DNA of 64,000 bases from a virus. Each line of letters starts with the position of its first letter. Position 1 is the stretch's first letter. The notes below the pieces were generated by a model. The model was not told the DNA's origin, searched no databases, and saw only the letters and a program-made list of their open reading frames with translations. Location of the stretch: positions 1-64,000 of IMG/VR virus record IMGVR_UViG_3300017774_003070; one strand, written 5' to 3'. Positions 11,042-46,100 of the stretch are shown in pieces. Position numbers and translations under genes: made by a program.

Positions 11042-11686
11042 ATGATTACTCAAAAACTAATAACTAAGAATAGACCTTTCAAGAAGCTTAAAGAACTACG
11101 AGGTATTGTAATTCACTGGACAGCTAATACACGTAAAGGTGCTAATTCTCAAGCTCACTATCTGTACTTTAATGCAGCTAACAGATCGTCCTCTGCTCAC
11201 TATTTTGTAGATGATAAGTCTGTACTACAGTTGATCCCAGATGATGAAGTAGCATGGCATGTAGGTGATAGCATTAAGTTAGCTAGTCTACCACTACGAG
11301 CTAAATATGTACCTAAAGGTGATAATCCTAACAACTACTTTATTGGTATTGAGATGTGCATGAATGAGGATTCTAATCAGCAAAAAGTACTTGACAATAC
11401 TGTGCAGTTGGTTACTGAACTCATGCTCAAATACAAGCTTACTAAAGATCAAGTTGTACGTCACTATGACATTACAGGTAAAGATTGTCCTAAAATGTTT
11501 GTACCACTTGTTGTTAATGGTGTCAAGTTAGAACATGCTTGGTTAGCTTTTAAAGATAAGTTACCGATAACACCAGAAGTACCACAAGCATACAGTATCA
11601 CGCAAGAACAAGAAACTAAATTAACTACATGGGAACTGTTATCACTGAGTCTACACCAAATCTTAGCCTTTATTCGCAAGATGTAG
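11042..11686 (+). CDS. N-acetylmuramoyl-L-alanine amidase (Amidase_2 endolysin)
   Basis: IVIHWTA, SAHYFVD, AWHVG, IGIEMC, RHYD..GKDCP Zn-amidase motifs. Confidence 0.9.
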   Translation: MITQKLITKNRPFKKLKELRGIVIHWTANTRKGANSQAHYLYFNAANRSSSAHYFVDDKSVLQLIPDDEVAWHVGDSIKLASLPLRAKYVPKGDNPNNYFIGIEMCMNEDSNQQKVLDNTVQLVTELMLKYKLTKDQVVRHYDITGKDCPKMFVPLVVNGVKLEHAWLAFKDKLPITPEVPQAYSITQEQETKLTTWELLSLSLHQILAFIRKM

Positions 11687-14995: not shown

Positions 14996-17464
14996 ATGCT
15001 ATTACTAGAAAAAAACAAGGATAAGAAGTGGTTTGAGTCAGTGATGAGTTCTATTATACCTTATCATGCTACTTACACAGATAGCTATGAGAAGTATAGA
15101 ATGATCTACGCGATCGTGAACAATGACATATCCTACATTCAAAAGAACCTCAAAGAGCTGTGTAAGCCTGAGAATGAATTGTTCCAACTACCTTTTGCAC
15201 AAGATCGTGAGATGGTGGTATTCAATCCAATTTTCAAGTACTACATGTTTTTGATTGGTGAACTTCTCAAGAGAGGAGACAACTTTGATATTCTACTTCT
15301 TGGAGATCGTGACAATAAAGCTAAAGACCAAGAGTTAACAGAAGCATTGTCTGAAGTAATGGATCAGCGTATTCAGCAAATGATGACTGATGTGCCTGAA
15401 GAACAGCGAGTAAAGCCTGAAGAAGTTGATGTACAGTCTTTCAAGTCTCAACTAGAGATGTTCTATTCTCAGGTCATTGAATTTTTCAAAGCTAAGTACG
15501 AGTTCAAGACAATCAAGAGACTCACCTTCCAACATGCCATTTGTACAGACATGTGTTTTGCTGGTATTATGGAGCGCAATGGTATTCCAGAACCAGTAGT
15601 ATTCAATAATCTTCACCTTGGTTACCACAAGTCTCCTGACATTGATAAGATTGAGAAAGGTGATTATTGGTGGTACAGAACTCCTATCACTATTGGTCAA
15701 GCTATTGAAGAGTTGAAGGGTAAGATTCCTGATGAAAGACTGAATCGTATTGCCAGCTTTGGAGCATCTACACACCTTACTCCTAATCAAGGTTGGGATG
15801 TAACTTCTGGTAAAGCAACTAGTCAATTCAATTACCTTGGTGTAGAAGAGTTGTACGAGAAAAGAGACTTTGACAATAGATACATTGGTCAGAGTACTGG
15901 TCAGATGAATAACCACAGAGTCAATTCCAATAGACTGATCTGGAAGACCATTATGGAATTCAAAGCTTTCAAGTCTGTAATCATCTTGTCTACTATTAAT
16001 GAGTTTGGAGAAGAGACGCTTGAGATTGTATCAGAGAATTATCCAATGCCAAAATCTGCTACTAAGGTCTTCTTCACTAACAAGTGGGGGAAAGATTCAA
16101 GCAGATACGAGTGGGTAGATGATTTTGGTAATATGGTCTATGCTGAAGAGATCTTTATTCCAAGACGTTATGAGTGTACTAGATATGGTACTGATGAATT
16201 TGTAGACTGTAGAGAAGTCCCTAACCAACCTCTCAATCTCGACAATCCATTTGACTTTGAACTAAGCTTAAAGGGTAGAATCTTCTCTGGACTTAATGCA
16301 GAACCAATCTCTATCATTGAACGAGGCTTATCAGGTTTCACTGAATACTTGTACATCAAAGACCTTGAACTACGAGAACTCTCCAAGTACGAAGGTTTCA
16401 TTAAGAACATTGATGCAAGCAAGATTCCTGACTACTTAGCTACTAATCCAGATGGGACTCCGCTATATGAAGGTGCTGACAAGTTGGCTATCTGGAAACA
16501 CATACGGAGAACTACTGGTGATTCTTACTATGAGTCTGCCAACCTTATGTCTGGTGTAATTGACCACCAGAAGACTATTCCTGTAAGAGCAGAAGTGTCT
16601 GGTAGTATGAATGAGATTCTAATCATGCAGAATCTACTTGAACTAATTGACAGACAGATAGGTTTGAACATGCTCATTCCTCAGCAAGCTACAGGACAGT
16701 ATTCAGCCTCCTCTAATGTAACTGACAATCAAGCAGCAGTTAACTCAAGCTACACCATGACTGAGATGTACTATCACGTACACAATGACATGATGAAGAG
16801 TCTCTTGAATGAGTACTTGATTCAGTTTACCAACTATTACAAGAATTACTTTGAAGAGAATCCTCAAGTAACTGAGACATATCTTAACTACATCCTTCCT
16901 GACAGTACTAGAAAGCTCATTACAATTAAACCTGAACTTCTAGATCACGAAGGACTTGGAGTATTCTTACAAGACACTACATACAATGAAGCATACAGAC
17001 GCAATGTAGCTCAGTATGCACTACAAGCAATATCTCAGAATAGAGGTGAAGGAGCTGAAGTTATTTCTGATCTTGTAATGGCAGTCAGTCGTGGTGAGTC
17101 ACCTGAGAAGATTCACAAGATGATTCAGATTGCAACTAAGAAGCAACAAGAGTTTGCAATGAAGATGCAAGAACAACAGTCTAATGCTGCTGCTCAACTG
17201 GAACAATTTAGAGCTACACAGGATGACAAGAAACATGCTCAGAAACTGGAAGAGATTCAACTTACAAAAGATCTTGATGCACAGATTAAAGCTCTTGACA
17301 TTTACAAGTTCAACGAGGATAAGAATACTGATAAAGATGGTATTGAAGATCCTATTGAAACTATGCTTAAAGTGAAAGAGAGTCAGCAACGAGATCGTGA
17401 GCTTGACATAAAGCAAGAAGAGGTTAAAGTTAAGGCGAAAGCTAAAACATTAAGTACAAAATAA
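14996..17464 (+). CDS. Portal protein
   Basis: 822 aa directly after TerL; C-terminal Gln-rich coiled coil; crAss-like synteny. Confidence 0.85.
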   Translation: MLLLEKNKDKKWFESVMSSIIPYHATYTDSYEKYRMIYAIVNNDISYIQKNLKELCKPENELFQLPFAQDREMVVFNPIFKYYMFLIGELLKRGDNFDILLLGDRDNKAKDQELTEALSEVMDQRIQQMMTDVPEEQRVKPEEVDVQSFKSQLEMFYSQVIEFFKAKYEFKTIKRLTFQHAICTDMCFAGIMERNGIPEPVVFNNLHLGYHKSPDIDKIEKGDYWWYRTPITIGQAIEELKGKIPDERLNRIASFGASTHLTPNQGWDVTSGKATSQFNYLGVEELYEKRDFDNRYIGQSTGQMNNHRVNSNRLIWKTIMEFKAFKSVIILSTINEFGEETLEIVSENYPMPKSATKVFFTNKWGKDSSRYEWVDDFGNMVYAEEIFIPRRYECTRYGTDEFVDCREVPNQPLNLDNPFDFELSLKGRIFSGLNAEPISIIERGLSGFTEYLYIKDLELRELSKYEGFIKNIDASKIPDYLATNPDGTPLYEGADKLAIWKHIRRTTGDSYYESANLMSGVIDHQKTIPVRAEVSGSMNEILIMQNLLELIDRQIGLNMLIPQQATGQYSASSNVTDNQAAVNSSYTMTEMYYHVHNDMMKSLLNEYLIQFTNYYKNYFEENPQVTETYLNYILPDSTRKLITIKPELLDHEGLGVFLQDTTYNEAYRRNVAQYALQAISQNRGEGAEVISDLVMAVSRGESPEKIHKMIQIATKKQQEFAMKMQEQQSNAAAQLEQFRATQDDKKHAQKLEEIQLTKDLDAQIKALDIYKFNEDKNTDKDGIEDPIETMLKVKESQQRDRELDIKQEEVKVKAKAKTLSTK

Positions 17465-18418: not shown

Positions 18419-20014
18419 ATGGATCGCAAATCAGCACTTCAGGTTACAGAGTATAAGGCGTTCGGTGGTACGTTCTTTGACTCTATCTCACACGCGGCTA
18501 TGTTCCGTGATGAGAAAGCTTATGACTTTGGTGTTATGACAGCAGGTTTGTTCAGCTCAACTAAAATGATGGGTTTGACAAATAAGCGTTGGTCGTATCT
18601 TACCATTGCTCAAGGCAACGTTTATGTACTACCAGCAGGTACTAATGATTACCAATGGTCAGTAGCAGGAGATAGCGAAATTGACTTCCGCTTTACTGAA
18701 CTGTTAGTAAGTACTTCTGCACAAGTAGGTAAAGGCAACACTACATTTGACATTGCAATTGACCGTAACTGGTTGAAAGCACCAGCAGTTCTTAAGTTGG
18801 GAGCTTCTGACAATGCACCTAGTATTGAAATCCTTAGCAACCAAGCAGAGCCTTTGAATGCTCACTCTTGGAAGTACACTTGTCAATTACAAGACGGTAA
18901 TCCTAACTCTTGGATTCCAGCTTTTTACTTGGCTCCTGGTCAATTGGCTAACCGTATTTCTACTCGTGTATCTAACGAAGAGAACTACAAAGGTGCTGGT
19001 GACTATTACCAATCATTTACCAAGTTGCGTTCTGTAGTAGGTCAGTACTCTAACGAGATTGGCTTTACTGACAAATTCATCAAGCGTGAAATTGCAGCAG
19101 CTAAAGGTAATGGTCAAGGTATGACTTACGAAGACACTGACGGCAAACAATACCGTGATGCATTCTCTCGTGGTTACATCTACCAGACAAGCTTGAAAGA
19201 CAAGAATACCAATGAAATTGTACAGAAAGGTGTGTTTATCACTAAAGCTGAACAACGTTTGTTGGAACGTACTGAGCTTGACCGCGAACGTGCAATGGAA
19301 TTCGGAAGACTTCAGATTGACAATGACTTGGATTCAGGTCGTGCGAAGAAAACTGCTCCAGGTTGGAGACAGATCGTAATGGATGGTCAAATCATGCCTC
19401 ACAATGGCAACTTTACCTTGAACGATCTGTATGACTTTTTGCACCAAGTATTCTTCCGTCGTCGTGGCTTTATGAATCGTAAAGCGTTACTCGTAGGTGG
19501 TACAGGTGCAATCAGCTACTTGTCCAACTTGATTGCTCAGAATGCTTCTGTATTCCAGACACTTGAGCCAGGGTTTGCTGTACGTGACAATGCTGAACCA
19601 GTAGGTGTTCACAAGTATGAGAAAGAGTTTGGTTTCCAGTTCACGAAGATTCGTTTGCCTATGGGTATTGACGTGTCTATCATGTACGATCCAAGCAAAG
19701 ATGATGACACTCTGTTCAAAGAAAAGATGCCTGGAAGTTATTTGCCAAAAGAGTCTTTCAACATTGACGTTCTGGACTTCGGTCAGACTGAAAATGCTGC
19801 TGAGAATTCAAGTGGTGAAAACATCTGTATGGTAATGGAAGATCAGTCTGATTACTACTACAGCGTTGCCAACGCAATTGACTTTAAGAATGGTATTGTT
19901 CGTGATGGTTCTAACGTATACAAGAACGGTAAGACGTTGGAGATCAAGCGTGAATTGTCTGGGTCATTGTGCATTTGGGACGCAACTGCCGTCGGAAGGA
20001 TCGTTTACATTTGA
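18419..20014 (+). CDS. Major capsid protein (crAss-like HK97 fold)
   Basis: 531 aa, strongly optimised codons, synteny, followed by a terminator. Confidence 0.85.
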   Translation: MDRKSALQVTEYKAFGGTFFDSISHAAMFRDEKAYDFGVMTAGLFSSTKMMGLTNKRWSYLTIAQGNVYVLPAGTNDYQWSVAGDSEIDFRFTELLVSTSAQVGKGNTTFDIAIDRNWLKAPAVLKLGASDNAPSIEILSNQAEPLNAHSWKYTCQLQDGNPNSWIPAFYLAPGQLANRISTRVSNEENYKGAGDYYQSFTKLRSVVGQYSNEIGFTDKFIKREIAAAKGNGQGMTYEDTDGKQYRDAFSRGYIYQTSLKDKNTNEIVQKGVFITKAEQRLLERTELDRERAMEFGRLQIDNDLDSGRAKKTAPGWRQIVMDGQIMPHNGNFTLNDLYDFLHQVFFRRRGFMNRKALLVGGTGAISYLSNLIAQNASVFQTLEPGFAVRDNAEPVGVHKYEKEFGFQFTKIRLPMGIDVSIMYDPSKDDDTLFKEKMPGSYLPKESFNIDVLDFGQTENAAENSSGENICMVMEDQSDYYYSVANAIDFKNGIVRDGSNVYKNGKTLEIKRELSGSLCIWDATAVGRIVYI

Positions 20015-24666: not shown

Positions 24667-27600
24667 ATGAATAAGCTATTATTTCTTTTACTATTGCTGC
24701 TTCCACTATCCTTAATTGGACAAGTGGAATCTCAGTTTAATGGGACACTGAATGTATTCTCTGGTTCACGAATTGGATCTACAAATACATTCACTATCTC
24801 TGGTATTTATTCAAATACTACAAGTCAGTATACATCAGCTAATTCAGCTACAGGTGACATTGTACAAGTGCAGTCAGGCTCAAGGTTCTACTGGTTACAC
24901 ATTTACTCAATAGCGTCTAATGCAGGAGGTGTAATTACTTGTAATGTACGAGACAGCTCTAGTACACTGACTACATTTCCATTAGGGAACTGGAACATCT
25001 TCAGACCTACTGTGAACAGACGATTACCTCTTACTGCTGATGGTATCTCTAATGCAGCTAGAGCTTCTGCATTTAATACACTAGCTTTACGTGTAGATCA
25101 GATTGCTAGTTCTGGTTCTAGTTCAACTAACTGTGAGCAGACTATAACTAAGACAGCTCATGGATTTAGAAAATGGACACCAATCTTCTGGAATGGTTCT
25201 ACTTATATTAGACCTACAGCAGACAGTTTAGTACCTGACTACATTGTAATAGACAGCTTGACCGCTAATACATTTAAGGTTGCTAGTTGTGGAACTTATA
25301 CAACTACTCTGAGTAATGGACTTTACTGGTTTACATCAGCTAACCCTGGTTACAGTTTGACTGCGGATACTACTAAGGTTCCTCTTTTTCAAGTACTTAA
25401 TACTAAACTGATTCTTGATCCTATTGTAGGGTTTAACTTGATGTCTGGTAGTGGTTCAGGTACAGGAATTACAAATGGAGACAAAGGAGAAATTACAGTT
25501 ACAGATGATGGAGCAACCTGGACTATTGACAATGGAGTAATAAGCAATGCTAAACTAGCTACCAACGCAGTTGACTCTACAAAAGCAGCTAATCTATCTC
25601 CTAATGATTTAGCACAGACCGGGGCAAACACAAATGATGTGCTTACGTGGACAGGTAGCAAGTATGCACCAAGACCTTCGATCGGTGGAGGTTCTGGGAT
25701 TACCGCTTTAACGGGAGATGTAACAGCATCGGGCACAGGAAGCGTTGCGGCTACGATTGCTAATAACTCTGTGACCTCTGCTAAAATAGCAAGTCAAACA
25801 CTTGATTCAACTGATTTAAAAAACAGAGGGACTACTCTTTTGAAATTGGCTCAAAGTGGAGCTACAAATGGGCAAGTCCCAGTTTATAATTCTACGTCCG
25901 GTAATTGGGAAGCTGGGACTGTATCAGGCGGTAGTGGAAGCCCAGGTGGTTCAACTACTCAGATTCAGTATAATAATGCAGGAAGTTTTGCTGGAGAATC
26001 TGGGATTGTTCGTTCTGGCACTGGATCAATAACTTTATCCGGCAAGTTAGTTTCTGGAGACACAGTAAGAGCAAAGACTTTATTGGCTAGAGGATTGTTG
26101 ACAGTTGGAGACAATTTTACCAGTACGCTCGACACTATTACTTTTTTTGGGAATAGTATCACAGAAGGGTATTGGGCTTTCCCTACGGTTCCTACTGCTA
26201 GGTGGACAACCCAAACTAGCTATTATTATGGTTCTTTCGAGGACAATAAAGGTATATCAAATACTAGAATGTCTGGTGGAACCAATGCTATGGAGGGCCG
26301 TACTGCTGAAATTCCAACCTATACAGCTACTCGTAGATATTTGGTTTTTGACTACGGTGTGAATGATGCGAATAACGCAGTGGACACTACTACATTTAAG
26401 ACGGCTTTTGCAGGGGTTATTGACGCAGCCACCGCAAAAGGATGGCCTACTACAAGAATAGTAATTGCATCCCCTACGCTCACTGGTATTGTATCAGGTT
26501 GTGTTAGATGTAGGGATTTTGTATCTGCTTCAAAAAATGTAGCCCTTGCGAAGTCTACAAAGTATGTAGATATGTTCAATGGAATGCTTACTGAAGGCGG
26601 TAGAGCTACTATACATCCTGATAGCGTTCACCCTACAGTGTTTGGGCATAAAGTTGCGGCTGAGGTATTTGTAAACAGTTTGAATGATACAGACTTGAAA
26701 GGAACAATTCGATCCAACCAAAGCATAATTGAAAGAAAATTAACAGTAAGAGGAGTTTCTGATTTTGCAGCAAGAACAAACTTTGCATCTGATGTATATT
26801 TTACTGGTGAAGTGAAATCCTCAATGAATTTAAGTGCAGGAGGGTTATCGAATATATTTGGAGAAGCTACAGTATCCCAGCAAAAATGGGGGTTATTTCG
26901 ATCTGGTAATTCTCGATATGGGATGGGTATAAGCACCAGCGGCGGCATCTTTTCTGATCATTACTTTTCATCTGCTGCGACAGCTTATCGAATAGGAACG
27001 ATGAGTAGCAGCGATGGCACTACATACACTCCATTATTCAGAGTCCTAGCAAATGGTAACGGTGATTTAACAGGTACATTATCGGTGGGGGGGTTATCTG
27101 TAACTAATGCTACAACTTTTTCAGGAGGGGTTACAATAACAGGCGATGCAGTAGTTACTCAACAAAGGTTAGCTATTTTTCGATCTGGTAATTTTCGCTA
27201 TGGCATAGGCATGGGTAGCCCTGATGGTTCTAATTTCTTTACTGACGTATACGGTTCTTCAACTGGCTCAGTTCGATTAGGGTTCATCTCTACAGGTGAC
27301 GGAGCTACTTATAATCCTGTTATTTCTGTTTGGTCTAATGGTAGAACGTATATTGGCACATCTCCAATTGCGCCTACAGCAATATTACATTTAAAAGCAG
27401 GAACTGCCACAGCATCCACAGCTAGTTTGAAAATTGATGAAGGAACGCTTTTGACAACGGCTGAAAAAGGTGCGGAAGAATTTGCAAGTGGTAAAAGGTA
27501 TTTTTCCCCTGCAAATTCGACTAGATACGAATATGCTTTAACGCTTAGAGGCTCCGCAACACTAGACTTCGGAAGCACAGCAGCAAATGGTGAAAGCGAT

Positions 27601-27792
27601 CTAACCATTACGGTTACGGGCGCTGCTGATGGAGACGTTGTAAGTCTAGGTGTTCCAAATGCTAGTGCAACGACAGGAGTATTTTTTGCCTGGGTGAGCG
27701 CAACCAATACGGTAACAGTTCGTTTTCACAATACAAGCGGAGGATCAACTGACCCTGCATCAGGAACATTTAAAGTAACTGTAACTAAATAA
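24667..27792 (+). CDS. Fibre/spike-like protein with Sec signal peptide and SGNH esterase domain
   Basis: MNKLLFLLLLLLPLSLIG|Q; SGNH blocks FFGNSIT, KG, GVND, DSVHP (about 26137-26685); fibre repeats. Confidence 0.75.
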   Translation: MNKLLFLLLLLLPLSLIGQVESQFNGTLNVFSGSRIGSTNTFTISGIYSNTTSQYTSANSATGDIVQVQSGSRFYWLHIYSIASNAGGVITCNVRDSSSTLTTFPLGNWNIFRPTVNRRLPLTADGISNAARASAFNTLALRVDQIASSGSSSTNCEQTITKTAHGFRKWTPIFWNGSTYIRPTADSLVPDYIVIDSLTANTFKVASCGTYTTTLSNGLYWFTSANPGYSLTADTTKVPLFQVLNTKLILDPIVGFNLMSGSGSGTGITNGDKGEITVTDDGATWTIDNGVISNAKLATNAVDSTKAANLSPNDLAQTGANTNDVLTWTGSKYAPRPSIGGGSGITALTGDVTASGTGSVAATIANNSVTSAKIASQTLDSTDLKNRGTTLLKLAQSGATNGQVPVYNSTSGNWEAGTVSGGSGSPGGSTTQIQYNNAGSFAGESGIVRSGTGSITLSGKLVSGDTVRAKTLLARGLLTVGDNFTSTLDTITFFGNSITEGYWAFPTVPTARWTTQTSYYYGSFEDNKGISNTRMSGGTNAMEGRTAEIPTYTATRRYLVFDYGVNDANNAVDTTTFKTAFAGVIDAATAKGWPTTRIVIASPTLTGIVSGCVRCRDFVSASKNVALAKSTKYVDMFNGMLTEGGRATIHPDSVHPTVFGHKVAAEVFVNSLNDTDLKGTIRSNQSIIERKLTVRGVSDFAARTNFASDVYFTGEVKSSMNLSAGGLSNIFGEATVSQQKWGLFRSGNSRYGMGISTSGGIFSDHYFSSAATAYRIGTMSSSDGTTYTPLFRVLANGNGDLTGTLSVGGLSVTNATTFSGGVTITGDAVVTQQRLAIFRSGNFRYGIGMGSPDGSNFFTDVYGSSTGSVRLGFISTGDGATYNPVISVWSNGRTYIGTSPIAPTAILHLKAGTATASTASLKIDEGTLLTTAEKGAEEFASGKRYFSPANSTRYEYALTLRGSATLDFGSTAANGESDLTITVTGAADGDVVSLGVPNASATTGVFFAWVSATNTVTVRFHNTSGGSTDPASGTFKVTVTK

Positions 27793-27793
27793 C

Positions 27794-29557
27794 ATGAAGT
27801 ACATACTCATATTTTTACTTGGATTGATTACATTTCAAGTAAATGCACAAGGTAGCAAAATAATAGGTTCTACAAGTACAGCTAGTGGTGATGTACAAGG
27901 TACTTACCCTACTATCTACGTAAAACCTAATGTCATCAATCGTGCTAACTTAACTCAAACATTACGAGACAGTCTTACACGATTTAGAAAAGACACTTCT
28001 ATCACTATAGGTTCTGGTACAACTAACTATGGTTCCTTAGCGAATACATTTGGTAAGTACAGTAGAGTTAGAATTACTTGCTTGTTACCTACTGCTGGCA
28101 CTGCATCTGTAATTCTACCAAGTCTTGCTGACACACTCAAGAATACTGAGATTAAAGTAACCCTTTACGCACAGGACTCCTCTGGTTCTGTAATGAATGT
28201 AGTAGGATTTGATGGATTTGCATTTTGGTTTAATGGAACTAATTTACAAGAACTTGATCCTGTCATCTACATTTCCAATAGAAAGACCATTACACTAAAA
28301 GGAATTTACCAAGCCTCTGATTGGATGTGGTTATCTGAAGTATCACGAGATTGGTTAGGTACTGAGTTGTATGACATTGCAGCTACAGGTATAACAGCAC
28401 TTACAGGTGACGTTACAGCATCAGGTACAGGATCAGTTACTGCTACAATTGCTACGTCAGCAGTTACATCTTCTAAGATTCTTGATGGGACTATTGTATC
28501 AGCAGACGTTGCTAGTCAAACTGTAGATTCACTTGACATTAAGAATAGATCAGTCACTACAGTCAAGTTACTAGATGGTGCAGTTACATCACTCAAAGTA
28601 CTAGACAACTCACTTACTGGCTCTGATCTTACATTCTTAACTCTTCGTGCAGGAACTACTTCTGATGCAAGCTTACAGTTAACTTCAGGATCAGATAAAA
28701 CTACACTGACTGGTGGAGAAGTGCTCTACAATGGTTCACGATTTGCAGTTGGTATTGGATCTTCCAAGAGACGTATAGCTGTAATGAATGATGTTACGCC
28801 AAGCAACGGGCAACTACCAATTGGTAATGGAACTGACTTTACAGTAGCAAACATTACTGCTGGATATGCTCAGACTGTAACTAATGGTTCTGGTAGCATT
28901 ACAATCTTACCTGACACTACACTTGTCATTCCTTACATTCCTTCTGCTGAGATAAGCAATGGAACTAGAGATGGTTACTTTAGAACACAGACCTCATTTG
29001 GTCATCAGTACTACAATGGTGGATTTAGAATCTTTAATGCTAGTGTAGCTTCTACATCTGGATCTACTGGACTTAGTGTATCTGATCTTGCCAATACTTA
29101 CAGATCATCTATTCAAGCTAGTCTTACTTCTGCTAATGTACCTACATTCTCAATCTTTGCAGTAGGAGCCGAACGTGGAGATAAGAGTGCTACATTTGAA
29201 GAAAAAGGAGCTACTATTCCAGTACTCTACAATTCAATTGGAGCTAATTCACAAGCTGTAACTACTTATCAAATAGATGGAGAAACTTCTATTGAGTACA
29301 TTACTAACTCTACACCAACTAACGTAACTTTACCTGAGATTGTAGGAACAAGCATTACTGCCAATAAAGTAGGAATAGGTTATACAATGTGGGTTGCAGT
29401 TAACTCATCTGTAGGTAAGAACATCAATGCAGCAGGATCAGATGTAATTATCAGACATGGTTCTACAAGTACTGTAACTACATTTACAACTACAGGTGGA
29501 ACTTACTACTTGAAGAAGTTTGTAGCATTAGGATTAGATGTTTGGGGAGAATTCTAA
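27794..29557 (+). CDS. Fibre-like protein with Sec signal peptide
   Basis: MKYILIFLLGLITFQVNA|Q; ALTGDVTASG and VTxxKxxD repeats. Confidence 0.7.
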   Translation: MKYILIFLLGLITFQVNAQGSKIIGSTSTASGDVQGTYPTIYVKPNVINRANLTQTLRDSLTRFRKDTSITIGSGTTNYGSLANTFGKYSRVRITCLLPTAGTASVILPSLADTLKNTEIKVTLYAQDSSGSVMNVVGFDGFAFWFNGTNLQELDPVIYISNRKTITLKGIYQASDWMWLSEVSRDWLGTELYDIAATGITALTGDVTASGTGSVTATIATSAVTSSKILDGTIVSADVASQTVDSLDIKNRSVTTVKLLDGAVTSLKVLDNSLTGSDLTFLTLRAGTTSDASLQLTSGSDKTTLTGGEVLYNGSRFAVGIGSSKRRIAVMNDVTPSNGQLPIGNGTDFTVANITAGYAQTVTNGSGSITILPDTTLVIPYIPSAEISNGTRDGYFRTQTSFGHQYYNGGFRIFNASVASTSGSTGLSVSDLANTYRSSIQASLTSANVPTFSIFAVGAERGDKSATFEEKGATIPVLYNSIGANSQAVTTYQIDGETSIEYITNSTPTNVTLPEIVGTSITANKVGIGYTMWVAVNSSVGKNINAAGSDVIIRHGSTSTVTTFTTTGGTYYLKKFVALGLDVWGEF

Positions 29558-29603
29558 AAACCATTGAATCCTTTGGACTTTCATAATTTTCAATTCTTAA
29601 AGC

Positions 29604-29777
29604 ATGATAGGAACAATATTTGGAACCAATAGATCAGGTGGGTTAACTATTCCAGGAGCTTACAGTAATGATGCTGAGGCTGCTAGTAATGGTGTACAAG
29701 TAGGGCAACCTTACTATGTGCTTGTATCTATGGACTATGGTATTCCTACTGGATTTGTCAGAATTAGAGAATCATAA
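29604..29777 (+). CDS. 57-aa small fibre-associated protein (not in the ORF track)
   Basis: MIGTIFGTNRSGGLTIPGAYSNDAEAASNGVQVGQPYYVLVSMDYGIPTGFVRIRES; the YxxDAxAxxxGVxVGxxY motif recalls fibre-terminal modules. Confidence 0.65.
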   Translation: MIGTIFGTNRSGGLTIPGAYSNDAEAASNGVQVGQPYYVLVSMDYGIPTGFVRIRES

Positions 29778-29786
29778 AACAGAGCA

Positions 29787-32700
29787 ATGAAAAACATACT
29801 TATTATACTAGCTCTTCTTTTGCCTATCACTGTATCTGCACAGTTGCTTAACTCATACGGTGTAGTAGAGATAGGAAGTTCATTCCCGATGTCCTCTACT
29901 AGAGGAGCTAAGTTTGCATACAGAACTACAGATTCGTCATTCTACAGATGGATTGTAGGTAATACTTGGGTAAAGGTTGTGGAACCTAGTATTGAACCAG
30001 ACACACTCTACCTAAAACAGCTCTCTGGTACGACAGCCTTAGTTGACGGTGACACAATTGACATCTCAACTTATCTTCTAAAGGCAGATACAACATCCTT
30101 CCTAGCCCCTTATATTAGACTAGCTGGATATGGATTACTTAAATCAACTAATACACTTCGAGTAGATACAAGTCTTATTGCAACACGCTTCTATACAAAC
30201 TCTACATTCCTTCCCATCCTCGGCGGCACCCTTACCGGAACCACTGGGAACGGCTTTTTAGGACTATTGCCACAAAGTTCAACTCCAAGCACACCAGCGT
30301 CAGGGTTTCGATTCTTTGCAAACGGTGCGCATAATTTAGCACTTCGAGATCGAAACGGGTGGATTACGACGTTCGATATTTCCGCAACTGGTAATCGTGA
30401 TTTTGCGTATCCGTCTATTGGTGGCACCTTTGCACTAGGCACGGGGACGGCTACACGAATACCGATTTGGACAAATGCCAACACGCTCGGAGATTCACCG
30501 ATTCTTTACAACAGCACCACTAAACGGACAACATGGGATAGCCCAGGCGTGATCGACATCCCAATGGGAACAGATGCAGAACGACCTAGTCCTGCGGTTA
30601 CGTCGGATTTCTGGTACAACACAACCGGAAATGGTATTGAATGGTACAACGGTAGTAGGTGGGCTAAGGGGTTGGAAAGTACAGCAAATAGGTTTGCAAC
30701 AGGTAGTTTGATTTTTGTAGATGCAAATGGGCAAGCGACGCAAAATAACACGAAACTATTTTGGGACAATACAAACAACAGACTTGGAATTGGAACAGGA
30801 TCACCTACAGCCCCCCTTTCCATTTTTTCCACTGGTGCAATTGGGTTTCGGATTTTTCCAAGTCCCACAGATATTAACTGGTGGCGATTGGGGTTGACAT
30901 CAGGCGGGGGTTTTTTGGAGTTCAATCCCTCTGATGTTAATATTTCTAACCGATTATCACTGCCCGAAACGGGGGTAGCTCGATTTAGGAGTGGTAACCA
31001 AAATCCACAATCTTCGCATTTTTTTAACACAAATTACAGGATGTATTTTAGTGGCGGGGTTGGAAATGCAAACGGAGGCGGTGGTGATGATGGAGGTGAT
31101 TTATATTTTATGGGTGGCGATTCCCCCAACTCGGATGCAGGAGTAACAGGGGGTGATATATATATTCAAGGTGGGCAGGCATACACTAGAGGCGCTGCCT
31201 TTGCTGGAAATGTTATATTGAATTGGAGTAGCTGGGGCAATGTAGGAGTCGGGACAAGAACCCCAGGACAAGAAATGGATATAAATGGTGATCTCTACGT
31301 AAGGGACAGTATTCGATTAGGCACTGTTCCGCTTATGTCGTCAGCTACAAAAATAGCTGTGCTGGACGCAAACAATTGGATAGGGTATCGAAACTCAAAC
31401 ACAATCGGAGGGGTGTCAGACTCGCTTTATAAAGCTGGATTTAGTCTTGTATATCGAAATAACGCAGGAACAAGACGAGACACAATACAGGAATCGTTTT
31501 TCAATCGATACGGCTCGATGATTGCTATTCCATTCACAAGCGATGTCACAAACTATAATACAAACAGCAGCGCGAACGTATTTGTTGGAACTATTTTTAG
31601 CTCAGATACAAGCGCGACAGACTTAACTTTATTAGATTCGGATGTATCAATCGGAGGAGGGTCTTACATAGAAAACAAAGCTGGCAATTTCGGTGTCACT
31701 CAAGTTGGTCATGCTGCGTCCGTTAACGGTATATCAACTAGGGCAACAGTCGTCGGGTTTACTTCTTCTGCCTCAAATGCAATTAACTCCACATCGATAG
31801 GCGTAAACAATACGATGTCTGCTGGTGGTGCACTTGCTTTTGGGAATTTTAACACGATAAGCGGGGGTGGTTCTGGTGCATTTGGATCGGTTCATAATAT
31901 CACACAAGCAAATAGATACCAGTACGGGAATGGATCAAGTGAAAACTCAATAAGGCATTTCTTTTACGGAAACCTGAATGTGGGTTCTGACTCTTCCTTT
32001 TCCTACAATAACACCACGGATGTTTTCAGGCTTTCAACCTATGGCACAGGCACAAAAGAAGCCGCCGACCTTTCCAAAACCCAATCCAACTACATCGCAG
32101 GATTTGCCACAGATGGTACAGTTACAGAGATGGAAGGCGTACAAGTATCCTCTAATAAAAATCTCTTACTAGGCACAACCACCGACGTGCCCACATCAAT
32201 TCTTACAGCACGTTCAACCACAAAGAGTTCATCACCTTTCCCTTTTCACACTACAGCAGAATCAAATGCTATTACAGGAGTAGGCGGTAACTTTGAATGG
32301 GTAACAGATGGTATCGGGCCAGGATTTAGATGGCATAACGGAACGAGGGGTGCTTATGGGCTGGAATCTACCTTTGCACGGGGGACGGCTACACGGGTTC
32401 CGTTTTTTGATGCCAATGGGCAAATTACAGACAACAGCGGAATTACTTTCCAAAACCCTGGAACAATAGTAGGGACTGCTCATAGCTCATTGCGTGTCAC
32501 AACCTCAGCAACCGCTACCGCAAATAATCAATTCATAACAGGGACAATCTTTACCACTACGAACAGCCCTGGCGCTTTCACGGGTGTTAGAAATCACGTT
32601 GCTGCATTCTTAACAGACGACGCAACAGGCAGTACAATTGCAATAGGAAGGCCGTACAGCAATAACTTTTTTGCCACAATTACTTCTGATTTTAGCACAC

Positions 32701-34586
32701 GAAATTTCATTTTCGATTCTGGAAACAGTGGCGGCAACTTGATTTTCAGGAAAGCAGGAACGCAGGTGCTTTCAGTTGGCTCACCTCGTTTAGCTTATGC
32801 AGGTTCTTTTTTTAGTTCCGCAACCGAATCGTTGTACGGGTTAAATACTTCGTTTGCACAAGAGACGGCTTCATCCGCTTATTTTTTAATGCGCGAAGGT
32901 ACGGCGGGTTATAAGGCCGCGTTTGGTCACGATGGAAACGGAAGCGCTACAATTTATGCTCAACGAGCAAATACAAACTTCGTGGCAGCGGATATGAAAC
33001 TTCGTTTATCTGGTGCGACGGGATATGCAGAGTTTCTAAACAACACAGCAGGGGTTTTACTTGGAGGTGGCACCACTGCACAAACGCCAACAGAGGCAAA
33101 CGGGTTGATTCGCTACAATTCAGATAGCACATTATACCAAATCTACCAAGGCGGAGCAAGGGCATTTATCGCAACTCGTGCCTACGTTCGTTCTTCGGCA
33201 TTAAATATAGGAAACTCTAACTTAACATTAACAGGAAATCGAACCCTTTCAAGCGGTGGATTCAGTTTAACCTTATCTCCAAAAACAACAGTTTCAGATA
33301 CTTTTTTACTTCCGCTTGGAAAGGTAAAAACAAATACCTATGCTCCGATTATGGGTAAAAATGTGAATTGGGCTGAGAATGGAAGTATAATGTATGGGGA
33401 GAACATACGTAGCGATTCAACTGGATTTGGGGCAGGGCAGAATGTATTGTTCGGATTAAACCTAATGCAAAAAGCAAGGGCATCAGGTGGTAGATTTATG
33501 CTTTTTGGTGACAACATTCTAAATGGAATCACTTCTGCATTTAATGTGGTGGGGATTGGCATTCAAGTTGCTGACCAATCTACAACAGCAGGGAGCGACT
33601 TTTTTGTTGGCGGTTCCGTTGTGGCTCGGTATGCAACAAGCCTAGATCGTGCGGTTATACTTGCGTCACGAAGCTTCAATAGGGTTGCCGGAGTGAACTT
33701 AACCCAAACCGTTGCATTTGGGTACGGGGCAGGCTCGACAAGCACAGAAAGATCAGCAGGAGGAACTCACTACGGGTACCTACAATTACAATCGCTAGTA
33801 TCAGGGGATCAAATTTCCACATACGGGTATTTAGCAGGGCGAGTAATTAAACGCGGCACAAACCTTTCTTTCATAGGCAACTACACGGGCGCAACTGATA
33901 CCATGTTTTCCGATGCTTCCGCAATTGGGAACTATGCCGCAATTGGGCAAAATCAAGCAATCACAATCGGTGCAATCAATGGGGTAAACAGTGCGACGTA
34001 CGATGCTAAAATAGGTATAGGCACAACAACCCCGTCTGAAAAATTGCACGTCGTAGGTAATATTAGATTTGGAAGTTATGGCACAGGAATAAAAGAAGCC
34101 ACCGACCTTTCCCTCAGCACCCCCACGTACATTGCTGCATTCGCACCTTCCGGCACAGGGCAAGGAACAATATTAGACTACAGAATAGCTCGTGACACCT
34201 TCATTGAAGACGTTACTTTATTCTCAGTAGGAACATTATTAAACACCTGTCAAGAATTAACTATAGTTTCTTCAATGACAGTACTTGCGAGTTCGGATCA
34301 AGAGATCAGATTCCCGGACGCTTCAGATGTATTCCGTGGAAGAAAGATTATCGTATACAGTAAGAAGAAAGACGCTGGACTATATCTACCTAAAATCAAA
34401 GTAGCAGGTGGTGTTTCAAGATTGTACTTTACAACCAACCCCGCAGTAGGAGGAACTGATCCATCTGATCAATCTACATTAACTATTGATGACAGTACAT
34501 GGTCAGATCATGGAACTACATTTGAATTCACTTGCTTGAAGATTGACAATACCCCAGCATATCGTTGGGTACTGAAGCAAAGGTGA
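29787..34586 (+). CDS. Long fibre/adhesin-like protein with Sec signal peptide
   Basis: MKNILIILALLLPITVSA|Q; G(I/V)GTxxP repeats, YadA-head-like xxIG/xxFG repeats, internal duplications. Confidence 0.75.
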   Translation: MKNILIILALLLPITVSAQLLNSYGVVEIGSSFPMSSTRGAKFAYRTTDSSFYRWIVGNTWVKVVEPSIEPDTLYLKQLSGTTALVDGDTIDISTYLLKADTTSFLAPYIRLAGYGLLKSTNTLRVDTSLIATRFYTNSTFLPILGGTLTGTTGNGFLGLLPQSSTPSTPASGFRFFANGAHNLALRDRNGWITTFDISATGNRDFAYPSIGGTFALGTGTATRIPIWTNANTLGDSPILYNSTTKRTTWDSPGVIDIPMGTDAERPSPAVTSDFWYNTTGNGIEWYNGSRWAKGLESTANRFATGSLIFVDANGQATQNNTKLFWDNTNNRLGIGTGSPTAPLSIFSTGAIGFRIFPSPTDINWWRLGLTSGGGFLEFNPSDVNISNRLSLPETGVARFRSGNQNPQSSHFFNTNYRMYFSGGVGNANGGGGDDGGDLYFMGGDSPNSDAGVTGGDIYIQGGQAYTRGAAFAGNVILNWSSWGNVGVGTRTPGQEMDINGDLYVRDSIRLGTVPLMSSATKIAVLDANNWIGYRNSNTIGGVSDSLYKAGFSLVYRNNAGTRRDTIQESFFNRYGSMIAIPFTSDVTNYNTNSSANVFVGTIFSSDTSATDLTLLDSDVSIGGGSYIENKAGNFGVTQVGHAASVNGISTRATVVGFTSSASNAINSTSIGVNNTMSAGGALAFGNFNTISGGGSGAFGSVHNITQANRYQYGNGSSENSIRHFFYGNLNVGSDSSFSYNNTTDVFRLSTYGTGTKEAADLSKTQSNYIAGFATDGTVTEMEGVQVSSNKNLLLGTTTDVPTSILTARSTTKSSSPFPFHTTAESNAITGVGGNFEWVTDGIGPGFRWHNGTRGAYGLESTFARGTATRVPFFDANGQITDNSGITFQNPGTIVGTAHSSLRVTTSATATANNQFITGTIFTTTNSPGAFTGVRNHVAAFLTDDATGSTIAIGRPYSNNFFATITSDFSTRNFIFDSGNSGGNLIFRKAGTQVLSVGSPRLAYAGSFFSSATESLYGLNTSFAQETASSAYFLMREGTAGYKAAFGHDGNGSATIYAQRANTNFVAADMKLRLSGATGYAEFLNNTAGVLLGGGTTAQTPTEANGLIRYNSDSTLYQIYQGGARAFIATRAYVRSSALNIGNSNLTLTGNRTLSSGGFSLTLSPKTTVSDTFLLPLGKVKTNTYAPIMGKNVNWAENGSIMYGENIRSDSTGFGAGQNVLFGLNLMQKARASGGRFMLFGDNILNGITSAFNVVGIGIQVADQSTTAGSDFFVGGSVVARYATSLDRAVILASRSFNRVAGVNLTQTVAFGYGAGSTSTERSAGGTHYGYLQLQSLVSGDQISTYGYLAGRVIKRGTNLSFIGNYTGATDTMFSDASAIGNYAAIGQNQAITIGAINGVNSATYDAKIGIGTTTPSEKLHVVGNIRFGSYGTGIKEATDLSLSTPTYIAAFAPSGTGQGTILDYRIARDTFIEDVTLFSVGTLLNTCQELTIVSSMTVLASSDQEIRFPDASDVFRGRKIIVYSKKKDAGLYLPKIKVAGGVSRLYFTTNPAVGGTDPSDQSTLTIDDSTWSDHGTTFEFTCLKIDNTPAYRWVLKQR

Positions 34587-34729
34587 GTCGGGGGCAATGC
34601 TGAAAAGCAGACCTCTGTACCTCAATGGATGCTTAACTACAAAGGAACTGCAAAGTGGAAATATTGGATACAAACAGGCATAATTGAAGAATCAAACGGA
34701 ACTTTCAAACTAGGAAAACTTAAACAATT

Positions 34730-35269
34730 ATGAAGTATTTACTACTGGTACTTTTACCAATCTTCTCCTACGCTCAACAAGACTCTATAGTGTATGAGAA
34801 ACGTGACACTCAATGGTACAAAATTACTGTACGTATTGAAGGACTTAAAAAGACAACAGTTGAAGAACCCTATACTACAGTTGACAGTCTTATTAAAAGT
34901 ACTCTACTAAACAATTTAGTAGATGCTGGTAGACAATACCGTGCTTTTAAATTAGCAACTGAGGAACAAGAGAAAGACTATCTTCTCAAGTTACGTCAAG
35001 CTGATAGACAGTACAGAACGCTCTACACTACACGTCCTAATCTCGACTCTCTCAGCAACGCTAAACAGTTAGTTGGTACTTGGTTATTAAATGGTGTAGA
35101 AATAAGCATAACTAAACAACTTAGATTGTTAACAGCAAGTATTAACTTTGTCTCTGAGGATGTATTCTGGGTTACTAATAACGGACGTGAATACTTCTTT
35201 AAACGAGGTAGAAGCTGGGTATCAGATAAACGTAAACTAGAACCTGAAACTACAAGATCAATTCGATGA
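34730..35269 (+). CDS. Exported protein with Sec signal peptide (possible fibre chaperone)
   Basis: MKYLLLVLLPIFSYA|QQ; directly after the fibre gene. Confidence 0.7.
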   Translation: MKYLLLVLLPIFSYAQQDSIVYEKRDTQWYKITVRIEGLKKTTVEEPYTTVDSLIKSTLLNNLVDAGRQYRAFKLATEEQEKDYLLKLRQADRQYRTLYTTRPNLDSLSNAKQLVGTWLLNGVEISITKQLRLLTASINFVSEDVFWVTNNGREYFFKRGRSWVSDKRKLEPETTRSIR

Positions 35270-35679
35270 CTATATCTGTAGTAGCACAATATTCAGACAG
35301 TTCAGGATTCTTGAATTCACTTACTCCAACTGTCTCTGTGATCTTACCTGATGGAACTTCTGTCTCGTCAGGATCTGCTACGTTTATAGCTAATGGTCTT
35401 TATCAGTATACGTTTACTGTCAACTATGACACACAATACATCTGGCAGTTTGAAGAAGCTACACTAGGATTTGATGAGAAGTACGTGACAGGTTCATTTA
35501 TGATTCCAAGTTCAGGTTCTAGCTCAGGTACACTTACACCACAAGCTATTCGTAACGCAATGTTACTTAGTCCTAAAGGTGTAGCACAGAATGGATCAGT
35601 AGATGAACAGTTGACTTTCTTGAAAAAAGCATTGTACATTATTGATCGTATTGCAAAGAAACTAGGAATAATAAACTAA
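35266..35679 (+). CDS. Hypothetical virion-associated protein
   Basis: Ig-like beta N-terminus (GLYQYTF), helical C-terminus. Confidence 0.6.
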   Translation: MTISVVAQYSDSSGFLNSLTPTVSVILPDGTSVSSGSATFIANGLYQYTFTVNYDTQYIWQFEEATLGFDEKYVTGSFMIPSSGSSSGTLTPQAIRNAMLLSPKGVAQNGSVDEQLTFLKKALYIIDRIAKKLGIIN

Positions 35680-36207: not shown

Positions 36208-36612
36208 ATGTCGTTTAAAACAGTCATAATGAACGAATATTTTAAGCTCTTAGTACAAGTTCTTACACCACTTATTTCTGCTGCTTTGACTGCTGTAGTC
36301 GCATGGATACTCAGAGGTAAATGGGAGAATAAGAAGAGAGACATTGAATTACAGCGTCTCGCTATGGATCTTCGCAAAGAGGAACTTGACTTCAGAAACG
36401 AATTAATGGTAGAAGTTCACAAGCTTCAAAAACAAGTCTTTGTCCTTGAGCAGACTGTACACCAACAATCACTTGAGATGGAAGTGTTACGTCAAGCTGT
36501 GCAAGAAAAAGATTCTCAGATTGCTATACTTACAAAAGATAAAGCTTTTGATAAGACTGCAATCGCAGAAAAGAATAACATTATCAGTAACTACATTAAA
36601 ACTGAAAAATGA
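36208..36612 (+). CDS. Membrane-anchored coiled-coil protein (holin- or spanin-like)
   Basis: One N-terminal TM segment followed by a long coiled coil. Confidence 0.55.
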   Translation: MSFKTVIMNEYFKLLVQVLTPLISAALTAVVAWILRGKWENKKRDIELQRLAMDLRKEELDFRNELMVEVHKLQKQVFVLEQTVHQQSLEMEVLRQAVQEKDSQIAILTKDKAFDKTAIAEKNNIISNYIKTEK

Positions 36613-36926
36613 TCAAGCTAATTAAACTGTTAGATGGTTTTAAAATCAATGATCCTAAAGTATTCATGCTTGTAACTCTTATTGCTAACATAGTGATAGG
36701 AGTTCTTGACTATTTTGGTACTTATGGATCAGAGGATATTAAGCCTCTTATTATGACTGTAACGTCAGTAGTAACTCTTATCTTGTCTTATCTTGGTGTA
36801 AGAACTACTAGATTTCTACAGAATAATCCTGAGCCAATTACAGAGACAACTGAGTTGATTAAAGACATTCACGTTGACACTGTAATAGCAGATAAATTAA
36901 ACACTGATGACAATATCACTAAGTAA
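36609..36926 (+). CDS. Putative holin (two TM segments)
   Basis: Two hydrophobic helices and a charged C-terminal tail. Confidence 0.55.
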   Translation: MIKLIKLLDGFKINDPKVFMLVTLIANIVIGVLDYFGTYGSEDIKPLIMTVTSVVTLILSYLGVRTTRFLQNNPEPITETTELIKDIHVDTVIADKLNTDDNITK

Positions 36927-43171: not shown

Positions 43172-46100
43172 ATGAAACCAATTAAACTAGTTCTTGACCC
43201 TTATCATACTGACGCTGAGAATGTAGCAACCTTTGTACTCAATGGTCAACTTGAGAACTTGACTGGGCAGCAGATGCATTACCAGAACGAAGTAGGAACT
43301 ACATACCTAGATAAAGTTACAGGTAAGATATGGGGAACTGTAAATATGGAACGTGGAGAGATATGTGTCTTTTCAGGTGATGGTGAGATTGGTGTACTGA
43401 CTAATGATGTCTATAAGAAGTTGTACGATAATTCCGAACTAACGTTTAATTCGTACATCAGAGGAGAATACAGACTGCTAAATGGTTGTGACAGAATAAT
43501 TTACTGGAACGATGGAACTAATCCTGATCGAGTAATTAACCTTGACAAGATTAGTCTCATACAGAGTATTGATGAATTACGTCAACAGTCACTTGTTCAA
43601 CAACCAGTAGTATCTAATCTACAGTTAGTCAACTCTGGTGGCATTCTCAAGTTAGGCGCATACTCATTTGCAGTACAACTACTGGACGAGAACTTGAATG
43701 TAGTATCGACCAGTGAAGTCAGTACTCAGATCAATACAGATGAACCAGGGTTTAATCTAGCTACTTTCATTGAAGGTTACTCAGCAGAAGAAGGTGGTAA
43801 GAATCCACTAGCTAAATCTATTCGAGTAACTATTGAGAATGTAGATACCAACTATCCATACCTGAGATTGTTTGCTATTGCTTCTGTAGAAACTGTAGGA
43901 ACTTCTGTGTATGAAGTAAGTAACTTGATACCTACTCAAAGCACTGTCAACTTCACTTTCACTGGAATCAATGGAACTACTCGTACAGACATAGAGAAGC
44001 TGCTGGTTGATCCAGTTATTTACGAGACCAGTCAAGCTATGCAAATTGTAGATAAACGTCTTGTAAAGGCTAATCTTACTTCTAAGTTCTACGACTACTC
44101 TCCCCTACAACGATATGTCAATGACAATGTTACACTTAATTGGGCAGCGGAGGAAGTGACAGAAACTACTAGATCATTTCAGTCTGATGAAATCTATGCT
44201 TTTGGTATTCAATTTCAATATGCTGACTTTGCATGGAGTCCTGTCTTCCACATTCCCAATAGAGAACCTGACGCTGTAGATCTATTCCAGAGAACTTACA
44301 CAATTGATGAAGTAGGTACAGGTAATAGTCTTACTCAACCATCGTGGAAGATGTACAGTACTGCAAGGAACTTGACTTCTTCTACTGGACTCTTTGGTTA
44401 CTATCAAACTGATCAAGTCTATCCAAGTATCAAGGATTGCAATGATGAGCTAGTTTACGGTGATCTTGCTGGAAAGAATGTACGTTATCATAGATTCCCT
44501 TCTAAGGCACTTCTCAGTCCCTCTACACGTCTTGGAGTAAAGGTTAATGTAGGTACTCTTCCTACAGGTGCTATCGGCTACAGGCTTGTATTCACTCCTA
44601 GAGATGATTTCAATAGGACAGTAAACGAGTCTGGTGTAGCATTTACCAGAGATAGAATTAATGATGGAAATTATGAATACAATACTTACAGTAACAATCT
44701 TGTATCTAGTCCTTACCTAGCCTGCCTTACTCCAAAAGAATTATCTGGAGAAGGTGTTAGAGCTGACTATATAAGTAGAGTAAAAGGCATAAGTCTGGGT
44801 ACTCCAGAAGTTACTTCTAAAGTGTATGACATTAAAGACAGCAACAGATATGATTTAAAAGTGCAAGTCAATGACTATCCTATTAATTACGTTAATGTTG
44901 CTGAACGATACTTTAATGTAGAAGAGTCTTTTTACATAGATAGTAAAACAACTTTTGAGAATAACTTTAACAAGTCTGTCAACACTGATTCTCTTAATAT
45001 TCTCAAGTGTAATTATCAATCTACTGTAGGCAAGTTTAACTACATCCTTAAGAAGCAAAGAGTTAATCCTTATCAAGACCTCTTCAGCTTACGCTATAAG
45101 CTACTTAACTCTCTGGTACAATACAGTCAGTCAGCTACTTACTTTGAAGGTGATGTGTACAGCACAAGATTCAATCTTTTTAATTGCGAAGAAGTAACTG
45201 TAGGATCTACAGGAGGAAACAATAGTGATCTTGACATTCTCTTTAATCATCATTACTTTGACTTTTGGATAGAGTCAGAGATTAACTATAGTTTAAGAGT
45301 AAGTGGATTAGATCAAAGAGCTGTATATCAGTATGGTGAACTTGTAGATTATTGTACAGATAGAATTACAAACATTGAAGGTGGAGAAGCTGTATGGGAA
45401 GCACAAAGTACTGCAATAGGATTCTCTCCTTTCACTGCTTTTGTAATTGCATTTGTTCCTTTACTTGTACTTGAAGATGCAACATCAATTAAAAGAACTA
45501 GAGAACAAGCAAAAGACATAAGCATTCCTGATTACTACAACTTTAATGTGGACTATCAGTTAACGTACTTGAGTAAGTGGTTTACAGCACTACCTATCAC
45601 TTACAACTATTGTAACCGATGTGGTAATAAGTTTCCCAATAGAATCATCTGGTCTAATGTATCTTTCACAGAAGAATTAAGTGACAACTGGAGAGTGTAC
45701 TTGAGTGAGAACTTTACATCTGTAGGTACAAGCCCCATTACTGCACTACACTATGACAGAAACAGATTGATTGTAAGAAGCACTAAGACACTTCACTCTC
45801 TTACTCCTAATCCACAGCAAGTTAATTCTGATGCAGGTACAATCTATCTTGGTACTGGTGACTTCCTCAGTATCCCTCCTAGTCAAATGATTAATGTAGA
45901 CTATGGCTTTGGTGGAGGTTCTGGTAGAATGGATCATGTAAAGACTGAATATGGGTGGTGTACTGTAGATCAGCAGACTGGCCAAGTATTCCTCTTCTCA
46001 GATGGGTTCAAAGAGTTGACTGATTTAGATGTACAACAGTGGTTTAAAACGCGGCTACCCCTTGGCGCTTTAGGTGAGATACATTGTGGGTATGATCCAA

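Follow-up and report, generated by a model that had tools for sequence, protein, structure and literature searches.

Tailed-phage assembly is, in the textbook account, wholly cytoplasmic. The fibres of tailed phages are attached last and can be added in vitro, as in the case of T4 fibres and P22 tailspikes, and they are therefore the one class of virion part able to take a separate route. Some receptor-binding proteins also modify the polysaccharide that they bind by means of an esterase embedded in a trimeric fibre or spike, as does the SGNH deacetylase tailspike gp63.1 of phage G7C. To our knowledge, the virion proteins known to be routed through Sec belong to filamentous or membrane-containing phages, and the phage proteins known to carry Sec leaders, such as T5 Llp and lambda Bor, are not part of the virion. 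In Bacteroidota, signal peptidase I exposes a glutamine (Gln) at the first mature position (+1) of exported proteins (the Q-rule), and a phylum-specific periplasmic cyclase turns this residue into pyroglutamate, stabilising the exported proteins (PMC5837995, PMC10653852). Porphyromonas gingivalis prophages harbour five Q-rule genes of unknown function (PMC10367356). In the MAT fibres of Bdellovibrio bacteriovorus, a signal peptide is followed by an N-domain of ~130 amino acids (aa), which is conserved and rich in beta structure, and then by a mosaic trimer with variable tips, some of them with an S74 chaperone (Caulton 2024, PMC10769870), indicating that phage-type fibres are able to fold after Sec export. 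Here we describe four adjacent genes (P0001 to P0004, positions 24667-35269, + strand) located in the first 64 kb (64,000 nucleotides, "the window" below) of the linear IMG/VR record IMGVR_UViG_3300017774_003070 (103,829 bp, CheckV completeness 96%), which comes from a divergent, uncultured freshwater crAss-like phage. All four products start with a leader followed by Gln, and three of them are fibre-like. We favour, with a probability of about 0.55, the reading that they are Sec-exported virion appendages matured in the periplasm and docking at or after lysis.

Four adjacent genes with conserved leaders

P0001 (24667..27792, +, 1041 aa) starts with MNKLLFLLLLLLPLSLIG followed by Q, P0002 (27794..29557, +, 587 aa) with MKYILIFLLGLITFQVNA followed by Q, P0003 (29787..34586, +, 1599 aa) with MKNILIILALLLPITVSA followed by Q and P0004 (34730..35269, +, 179 aa) with MKYLLLVLLPIFSYA followed by QQ; translation reproduced these N-termini as the preliminary description of this DNA had quoted them. 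The leaders span residues 1-18 in P0001 (24667-24720, with the mature Gln19 beginning at 24721), P0002 (27794-27847, Gln19) and P0003 (29787-29840, Gln19), and residues 1-15 in P0004 (34730-34774), whose mature end starts QQDS. They open with Lys or Arg at position 2-3, continue with 10-14 uncharged residues as the hydrophobic core and often have Pro near -6; from P0001 to P0004, position -1 is Gly, Ala, Ala and Ala, position -3 is Leu, Val, Val and Ser, and position +1 is Gln in 4 of 4. A crude rule-based n-h-c scan of our own, applied to all 318 open reading frames (ORFs) of at least 50 aa in the 103.8-kb genome, recognised the tripartite signal peptidase I leader in the four proteins and flagged no other long coding-strand ORF of the window. 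The remaining flags corresponded to one lipoprotein-like ORF outside the window and to a membrane-span-like ORF at 2144-2527. The absence of such peptides from the other virion genes, also claimed earlier, was borne out: the portal, the capsid protein, the 1221-aa muzzle-like protein, the 619-aa immunoglobulin-like (Ig-like) protein and others start hydrophilic. Chance is a poor explanation for four adjacent genes with leader and Gln (p ~2.5e-6 for the four +1 Gln at the proteome Gln frequency of 0.040; p ≤ 2e-4 for four leader genes standing side by side among ~125 genes).

An in-frame stop lies 2-4 codons 5' of each of the four ATGs, and therefore no longer reading of these ORFs is possible. 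The ATG of P0001 lies 4 nucleotides (nt) past the preceding gene and that of P0002 2 nt past P0001. A leaderless second form made from an internal start was also considered and ruled out, as the candidate start codons are not conserved: in relatives, the TTG of Leu20 in P0003 becomes CTA, ATT or ATA and the GTG of Val21 in P0004 becomes GTT, and P0002 has no start-like codon from its leader (TTG of Leu at residue 11) up to residue 97. P0001-P0004 lack the Cys that a lipobox would place at or close to the cleavage site, and do not look like signal peptidase II substrates; no type IX sorting domain (TIGR04183/TIGR04131 type) was found in the four proteins (NCBIfam at E ≤ 0.1, Pfam at E ≤ 0.01).

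The leaders are conserved as a trait in relatives. In the P0003 family, a leader followed by Gln was present in 47 of 49 database relatives, which have 40 distinct leaders and Ala (44) or Gly (3) at -1; in an alignment of 16 sequences with 26-62% identity (alignment A2), M1, P13, A18 and Q19 are invariant. The P0001 family has leader and Gln in 106 of 119 relatives, and most of the 13 leaderless ones begin inside the mature protein, so that these exceptions are mostly 5'-cut fragments at contig ends. All ten members of the P0004 family carry a leader, with Q16 invariant (alignment A1), and the P0002 orthologues in three related contigs (L002, L003 and L011) retain leader and Gln. Within the leaders, codon alignments revealed synonymous changes and swaps of one hydrophobic residue for another (Leu/Ile/Phe), indicating that the leaders are translated and selected for hydrophobicity rather than sequence. 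The +1 Gln precedes some seven unrelated mature N-domains (QVESQF, QSVTANQ, QCLIPT, QIEDTP, QTIVDP, QYPSSGNK and QLLRSYG), and its selection in front of unrelated domains points to signal peptidase I cleavage there and would be hard to explain otherwise. With leader, -1 Ala/Gly and +1 Gln kept in almost all full-length relatives, export of P0001-P0004 through Sec and signal peptidase I is very probable. The preliminary description had proposed that a fibre module is routed through the periplasm; conservation upholds the export part of this proposal, while the presence of the proteins on the particle and the time of their joining can only be inferred. Leaders are retained in relatives by sequence and are lacking in the positional counterparts of the crAss-like phages phi14:2 and crAss001, and the trait is therefore lineage-specific rather than common to all crAss-like phages.

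Bacteroidota O-glycosylate proteins at the sequon D-(S/T)-(A/I/L/V/M/T). The three fibre-like proteins contain 7.1 sequons per 1000 residues vs. 2.3 in the remaining proteome; they are rich in Asp, Ser and Thr, and per-protein shuffling expects 14.9 sequons, compared to 23 observed (p ~0.02). P0004 has 3 sequons vs. 0.6 expected, and D18-S19-[IVL] and D52-[ST]-L are conserved in its family of 10. A 185-aa protein (6768-7325, +) with an N-terminal signal anchor and no family match has 6 sequons vs. 0.8 expected by shuffling, and is probably a periplasm-facing, host-glycosylated phage protein. Clear enrichment is limited to P0004 and the 185-aa protein; glycosylation of the fibres is possible.

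Modular architecture of the fibre-like proteins

P0001 consists of a conserved N-domain (QVESQFNGTLNVF...), a fibre repeat module (residues 343-404) and a beta-rich C-terminal tip, and harbours an SGNH/GDSL esterase domain at residues 491-666 (26137..26664, +; Pfam PF13472, E 2.3e-16, 61.2 bits vs. a gathering score of 32.9). Catalytic blocks I, III and V are visible (FGNSIT, GVNDAN and DSVHP), and the domain is probably a deacetylase of surface polysaccharide. In P0001 relatives the same N-domain is retained and the GDSL domain is swapped for a sialate-O-acetylesterase (SASA), BNR sialidase-like, pectate-lyase, GH28 or S74 chaperone domain; identity of 60-88% extends over no more than the first 5-30% of the query. 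Such domain exchange looks like the module swapping typical of tailspikes. P0002 matches the PHROG tail-fibre family phrog_892 (E 6e-7) and shares with P0001 a fibre module, 57% identical between the two proteins, which also matches phrog_892. Bdellovibrionales "beta strand repeat" proteins match the repeat module of P0001 (E 7e-18). P0001 and P0003 themselves had no match among the PHROG profiles.

P0003 is a mosaic fibre whose N-domain (QLL.SYGVVEIG...) and C-terminal domain are conserved and whose middle varies. Residues 258-296 (30558..30674, +) form a predicted trimerisation-type module as in phage tailspikes; AlphaFold2 (AF2) modelled it with a pLDDT of ~88, the rest of the N-terminal model being mostly of low confidence. 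VIA-align superposed the module on residues 583-623 of CBA120 TSP3 (Z 4.8, root-mean-square deviation 1.1 Å over 39 residues, 31% identity), a weak resemblance that we treat as supportive only. The C-terminal domain (residues 1466-1599; 34182..34583, +) is a predicted beta-sandwich (alignment A3, AF2 pLDDT ~80). Two Cys are conserved in it (~1488 and ~1583): C184 of alignment A3 shows no variation and C89 hardly any, and in the periplasm the pair might be joined by a disulfide. Foldseek returned only weak matches to this domain, the best being phage spike or baseplate proteins, and fold searches with the C-terminal domain and with the N-terminal 312 residues gave nothing at E ≤ 0.001. P0004 matched no known family in profile searches, and the ESM Atlas returned nothing but viral clusters without names, which scored below 0.9. 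Complex prediction of P0004 with a trimer of the P0003 N-domain scored 0.00, which is no evidence either way. Overall, the phrog_892 match, the shared module, the swapped enzyme domains and the tailspike-type trimerisation module agree with the earlier view of P0001-P0003 as fibre-like.

Virion membership and rival readings

In the reading that we favour, P0001-P0004 would be made as pre-proteins, translocated by the host Sec machinery and cut by signal peptidase I just before Gln, and a periplasmic glutaminyl cyclase would then probably cap the mature N-termini with pyroglutamate. The periplasm would also be the site of fibre folding and trimerisation; P0004 would be exported alongside the fibres as their partner, and in its case at least O-glycosylation there is probable. 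They would serve as receptor-binding and receptor-modifying appendages, the latter through the SGNH esterase of P0001, and their conserved mature N-domains would attach to complete particles still lacking fibres, either when cytoplasm and periplasm become mixed through holin lesions and lysis or later in the lysate. Single-span proteins encoded at 36208-36926 would be candidate holins for this merging of compartments.

Presence on the virion is the weak link of this scheme, and several lines of evidence support it. By gene order, P0001-P0004 occupy the slot of tail proteins verified by mass spectrometry (MS) in phi14:2. Profile-library scans, which covered part of the ORFs, brought up no further fibre-like gene in this genome. 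In the P0001 and P0003 families, encoded within the virion gene block, the N-terminal module is kept and distal or enzymatic modules are exchanged, as expected of fibres; such a layout is that of docking fibres. There is also a precedent in cultured Cellulophaga phages: in the records of phi18:3 (NC_021794) and phi10:1 (NC_021802), gp085-087 and gp091-094 respectively all start with a leader followed by Gln, and their annotation, "based on experimental MS/MS proteomics" (tandem MS), names them as proteins of the virion, tail-fibre proteins or pectate-lyase proteins. In the regions L009:9545-13584 (phi18:3) and L015:14101-17392 (phi10:1), the two phages have in common the leader and first 118 aa of a pectate-lyase-type protein (83% identity) and the first 70 aa of a tail-fibre protein (59% identity), indicating that a leader-bearing cassette was exchanged between a short-tailed and a long-tailed phage.

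Other observations weigh against docking appendages. For this phage, cleavage, pyroglutamate, periplasmic location and particle presence are all deduced from sequence. The positional counterparts in crAss001 and phi14:2 are leaderless, so crAss-like particles can form with cytoplasmic fibres, and blastp found no match at E < 0.01 between the fibre-region proteins of the window and the proteins of phi14:2 and phi18:3. The sequon count of the fibres is just weakly above the expectation from their own composition. The MS detection in Cellulophaga virion preparations could reflect co-purifying secreted proteins, and the sharing of the cassette by a podovirus and a siphovirus is explained equally well by a self-contained secreted unit and by a docking fibre.

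Part of this evidence leads to a rival in which the four proteins are exported and never join the particle, but are secreted or envelope-bound products acting on the infected cell or its neighbours: a receptor-destroying esterase that keeps progeny from sticking to debris, agents that mask the receptor or exclude superinfecting phages, or enzymes set free at lysis to strip capsules. Adsorption would then depend on other parts of the particle, e.g. the muzzle or the Ig-like protein. The entire export evidence applies equally to this explanation, and the SGNH esterase in P0001 and the other sugar-acting enzymes in its relatives would suit it, as would the leaderless fibres with which crAss001 and phi14:2 particles are built and the Cellulophaga cassette common to two tail types. 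T5 Llp and lambda Bor set the same pattern, being leader-bearing and absent from the virion. The P. gingivalis phage Q-rule genes are likewise thought to modify the host envelope (PMC10367356). However, it would leave the phage without any recognisable fibre or spike, and it sits poorly with genes that occupy the fibre slot of a virion module, with proteins whose conserved N-module and swapped distal domains are built like docking fibres rather than free enzymes, and with leader-bearing counterparts present in purified Cellulophaga virions. We consider it unlikely, although a serious contender.

The two roles are not mutually exclusive, and part of an exported pool might dock on virions at lysis with the rest acting on the envelope of the dying cell. 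The evidence for docking and for non-virion action applies to such a dual role as well, and nothing separates it from either; no evidence of a division of the pool was found, however, nor a conserved second start that would yield a leaderless form, and we regard it as improbable. Most doubtful of all is that the proteins are not exported, their N-termini being a buried helix, an uncleaved tether or a mis-called start, with fibre assembly in the cytoplasm. Cytoplasmic assembly is the rule among tailed phages, but the ATGs cannot be shifted, hydrophobic cores of 10-14 residues are too short for a membrane span, and an invariant -1 Ala/Gly and +1 Gln before unrelated domains, behind a freely varying leader, would go unexplained without cleavage. 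The conserved sequons of P0004, which suit a periplasmic glycosylation system, also speak against a cytoplasmic location.

Genomic setting, implications and comparison with known systems

The genome has the features of Crassvirales in their typical order, with profile matches to phrog_6547 (crAss-type portal, 14996-17464), phrog_11589 (major capsid protein, 18419-20014), phrog_19299 and phrog_15100 (1221-aa muzzle-like virion protein, 43172-46837) and a 3166-aa ORF which, on size alone, corresponds to a virion RNA polymerase. The capsid protein is only 26-30% identical to major capsid proteins of human-gut crAss-like phages, the gene order is that of the cultured crAss-like Cellulophaga phage phi14:2 and freshwater metagenomes of several studies hold near-identical DNA; these features, together with the profile matches, identify the source as a divergent freshwater crAss-like phage. 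No RNA run was present among the sequencing runs listed with near-identical DNA. Megablast with 20 kb found no close relative among GenBank phages, and tblastn against them found none with P0002 or P0003 and two short matches only with P0001. The P0003-family alignment had no relative in the genomes of 185,579 cellular species, and the host is therefore not nameable below phylum level. The Bacteroidota -7 promoter motif TAnnTTTG was not enriched (63 found vs. 67 expected), and a search for related loci using the 239-aa upstream protein or P0004 as query returned nothing; the P0004-family alignment A1 is too divergent to serve as a scan query. A leaderless amidase endolysin (11042-11686) precedes the large terminase ORF (11629-14985, +; profile match), and the two have 58 nt in common where the endolysin gene ends. 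This terminase ORF is unusually long (1118 aa), and the terminase match spans only residues ~180-554.

Several small genes accompany the leader-bearing ones. A conserved, leaderless 57-aa ORF with the motif GAYxNDxxAAxxGVxxGxPYY lies between P0002 and P0003 (29604..29777, +); it is ~90% identical in L003, and in L011 it is shorter, without a visible ATG in the gap. A 137-aa protein without a leader (35266..35679, +), which had no family match in profile searches, accompanies the fibre/P0004 module in relatives: in L011 and L012 its homologues (138 and 139 aa) are found downstream of that of P0004, and there the fibre, P0004 and 137-aa genes are close together with their order kept and one gene of 364-366 aa inserted. 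A P0004 homologue always comes after a P0003-type fibre. In two more distant phages the fibre module lies upstream of the terminase and not after the head genes, the P0003-type fibre being followed directly by the P0004 homologue, with the 137-aa gene downstream; as the three are kept together at this new location, the set behaves as one module. Further downstream, two small proteins of 134 and 105 aa with one membrane span each, judged by their N-terminal sequences (36208..36926, +), are the candidate holin/lysis proteins; they had no PHROG match. In crAss001, likewise, lysis genes follow the fibres; here the amidase endolysin is far off. Outside the window, two overlapping ORFs (G000:C1:72291-72819, -), coding for a 73-aa single-span protein and a 107-aa lipoprotein-like protein (HFTSC followed by T), look like an i-spanin/o-spanin pair.

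Q-rule leaders, modular fibres and SGNH esterases are known as parts, and their combination was not found described in the literature; full-text searches found no paper describing leader-bearing tail fibres in Bacteroidota phages, and the nearest printed statement is that on the five Q-rule genes of the P. gingivalis prophages (PMC10367356). As a generalisation, which we put forward tentatively and at slightly less than even odds, many kinds of Bacteroidota phages, crAss-like as well as short-tailed and long-tailed, would have receptor-binding fibres that are obligatorily made in the periplasm, where host enzymes cleave them, cap them with pyroglutamate and glycosylate them in part; particles built in the cytoplasm would receive these fibres only once lysis unites the two compartments. 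If so, tailed phages would have a second morphogenesis compartment, and a virus would be equipping itself for adsorption by borrowing the envelope-protein maturation of its host. Were the whole fibre set to mature in the periplasm, the final assembly step would have to fall during or after lysis. Host-type modifications of the fibres (pyroglutamate, O-glycans and disulfides) would alter their stability and antigenicity, a leader with +1 Gln on fibres would be a cheap marker of Bacteroidota hosts for uncultured phages, and host-range work would be affected, as leaderless fibre constructs may misfold in E. coli. The question is directly testable in the cultured Cellulophaga phages phi18:3 and phi10:1.

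Compared to known systems, the closest by virus order are phi14:2 (g080-g086) and crAss001 (gp22-gp26), whose tail fibres or tailspikes lie in a comparable slot of the virion block; phi14:2 has the same gene order as the phage described here, and in crAss001 the fibres precede the lysis genes. Their fibres are also large and modular with sugar-acting domains (pectate lyase, hyaluronidase-like), but all of them are leaderless with hydrophilic N-termini; the phi14:2 proteins, those covered by the sequence comparison, showed no similarity to the proteins of the window. The Bacteroidota Q-rule substrates share with P0001-P0004 a leader followed by Gln (Bochtler 2018, PMC5837995; Szczesniak 2023, PMC10653852), but those known are cellular proteins or small prophage accessory proteins, and no fibre set from a lytic-type tailed phage is among them. 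The MAT fibres differ from the fibres described here in being cellular, located on the predator surface or vesicle and free of any Gln rule, and the similarity found is limited to the repeat module.

The esterase-bearing receptor-binding proteins such as G7C gp63.1 have an SGNH esterase embedded as in P0001, but theirs are cytoplasmic and leaderless. Finally, phi18:3 (gp085-087, Pachyviridae) and phi10:1 (gp091-095, Assiduviridae) differ in being short-tailed and long-tailed phages rather than crAss-like, in their marine host, in a low sequon density and in the absence of sequence similarity to P0001-P0004. The records make no mention of these leaders, and we found no paper discussing them. 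As in the phage described here, however, they have consecutive genes with leader and Gln, coding for fibre, pectate-lyase or "tail protein" products, adjoining the lysis genes, and all but gp095 are annotated as virion components by MS/MS.

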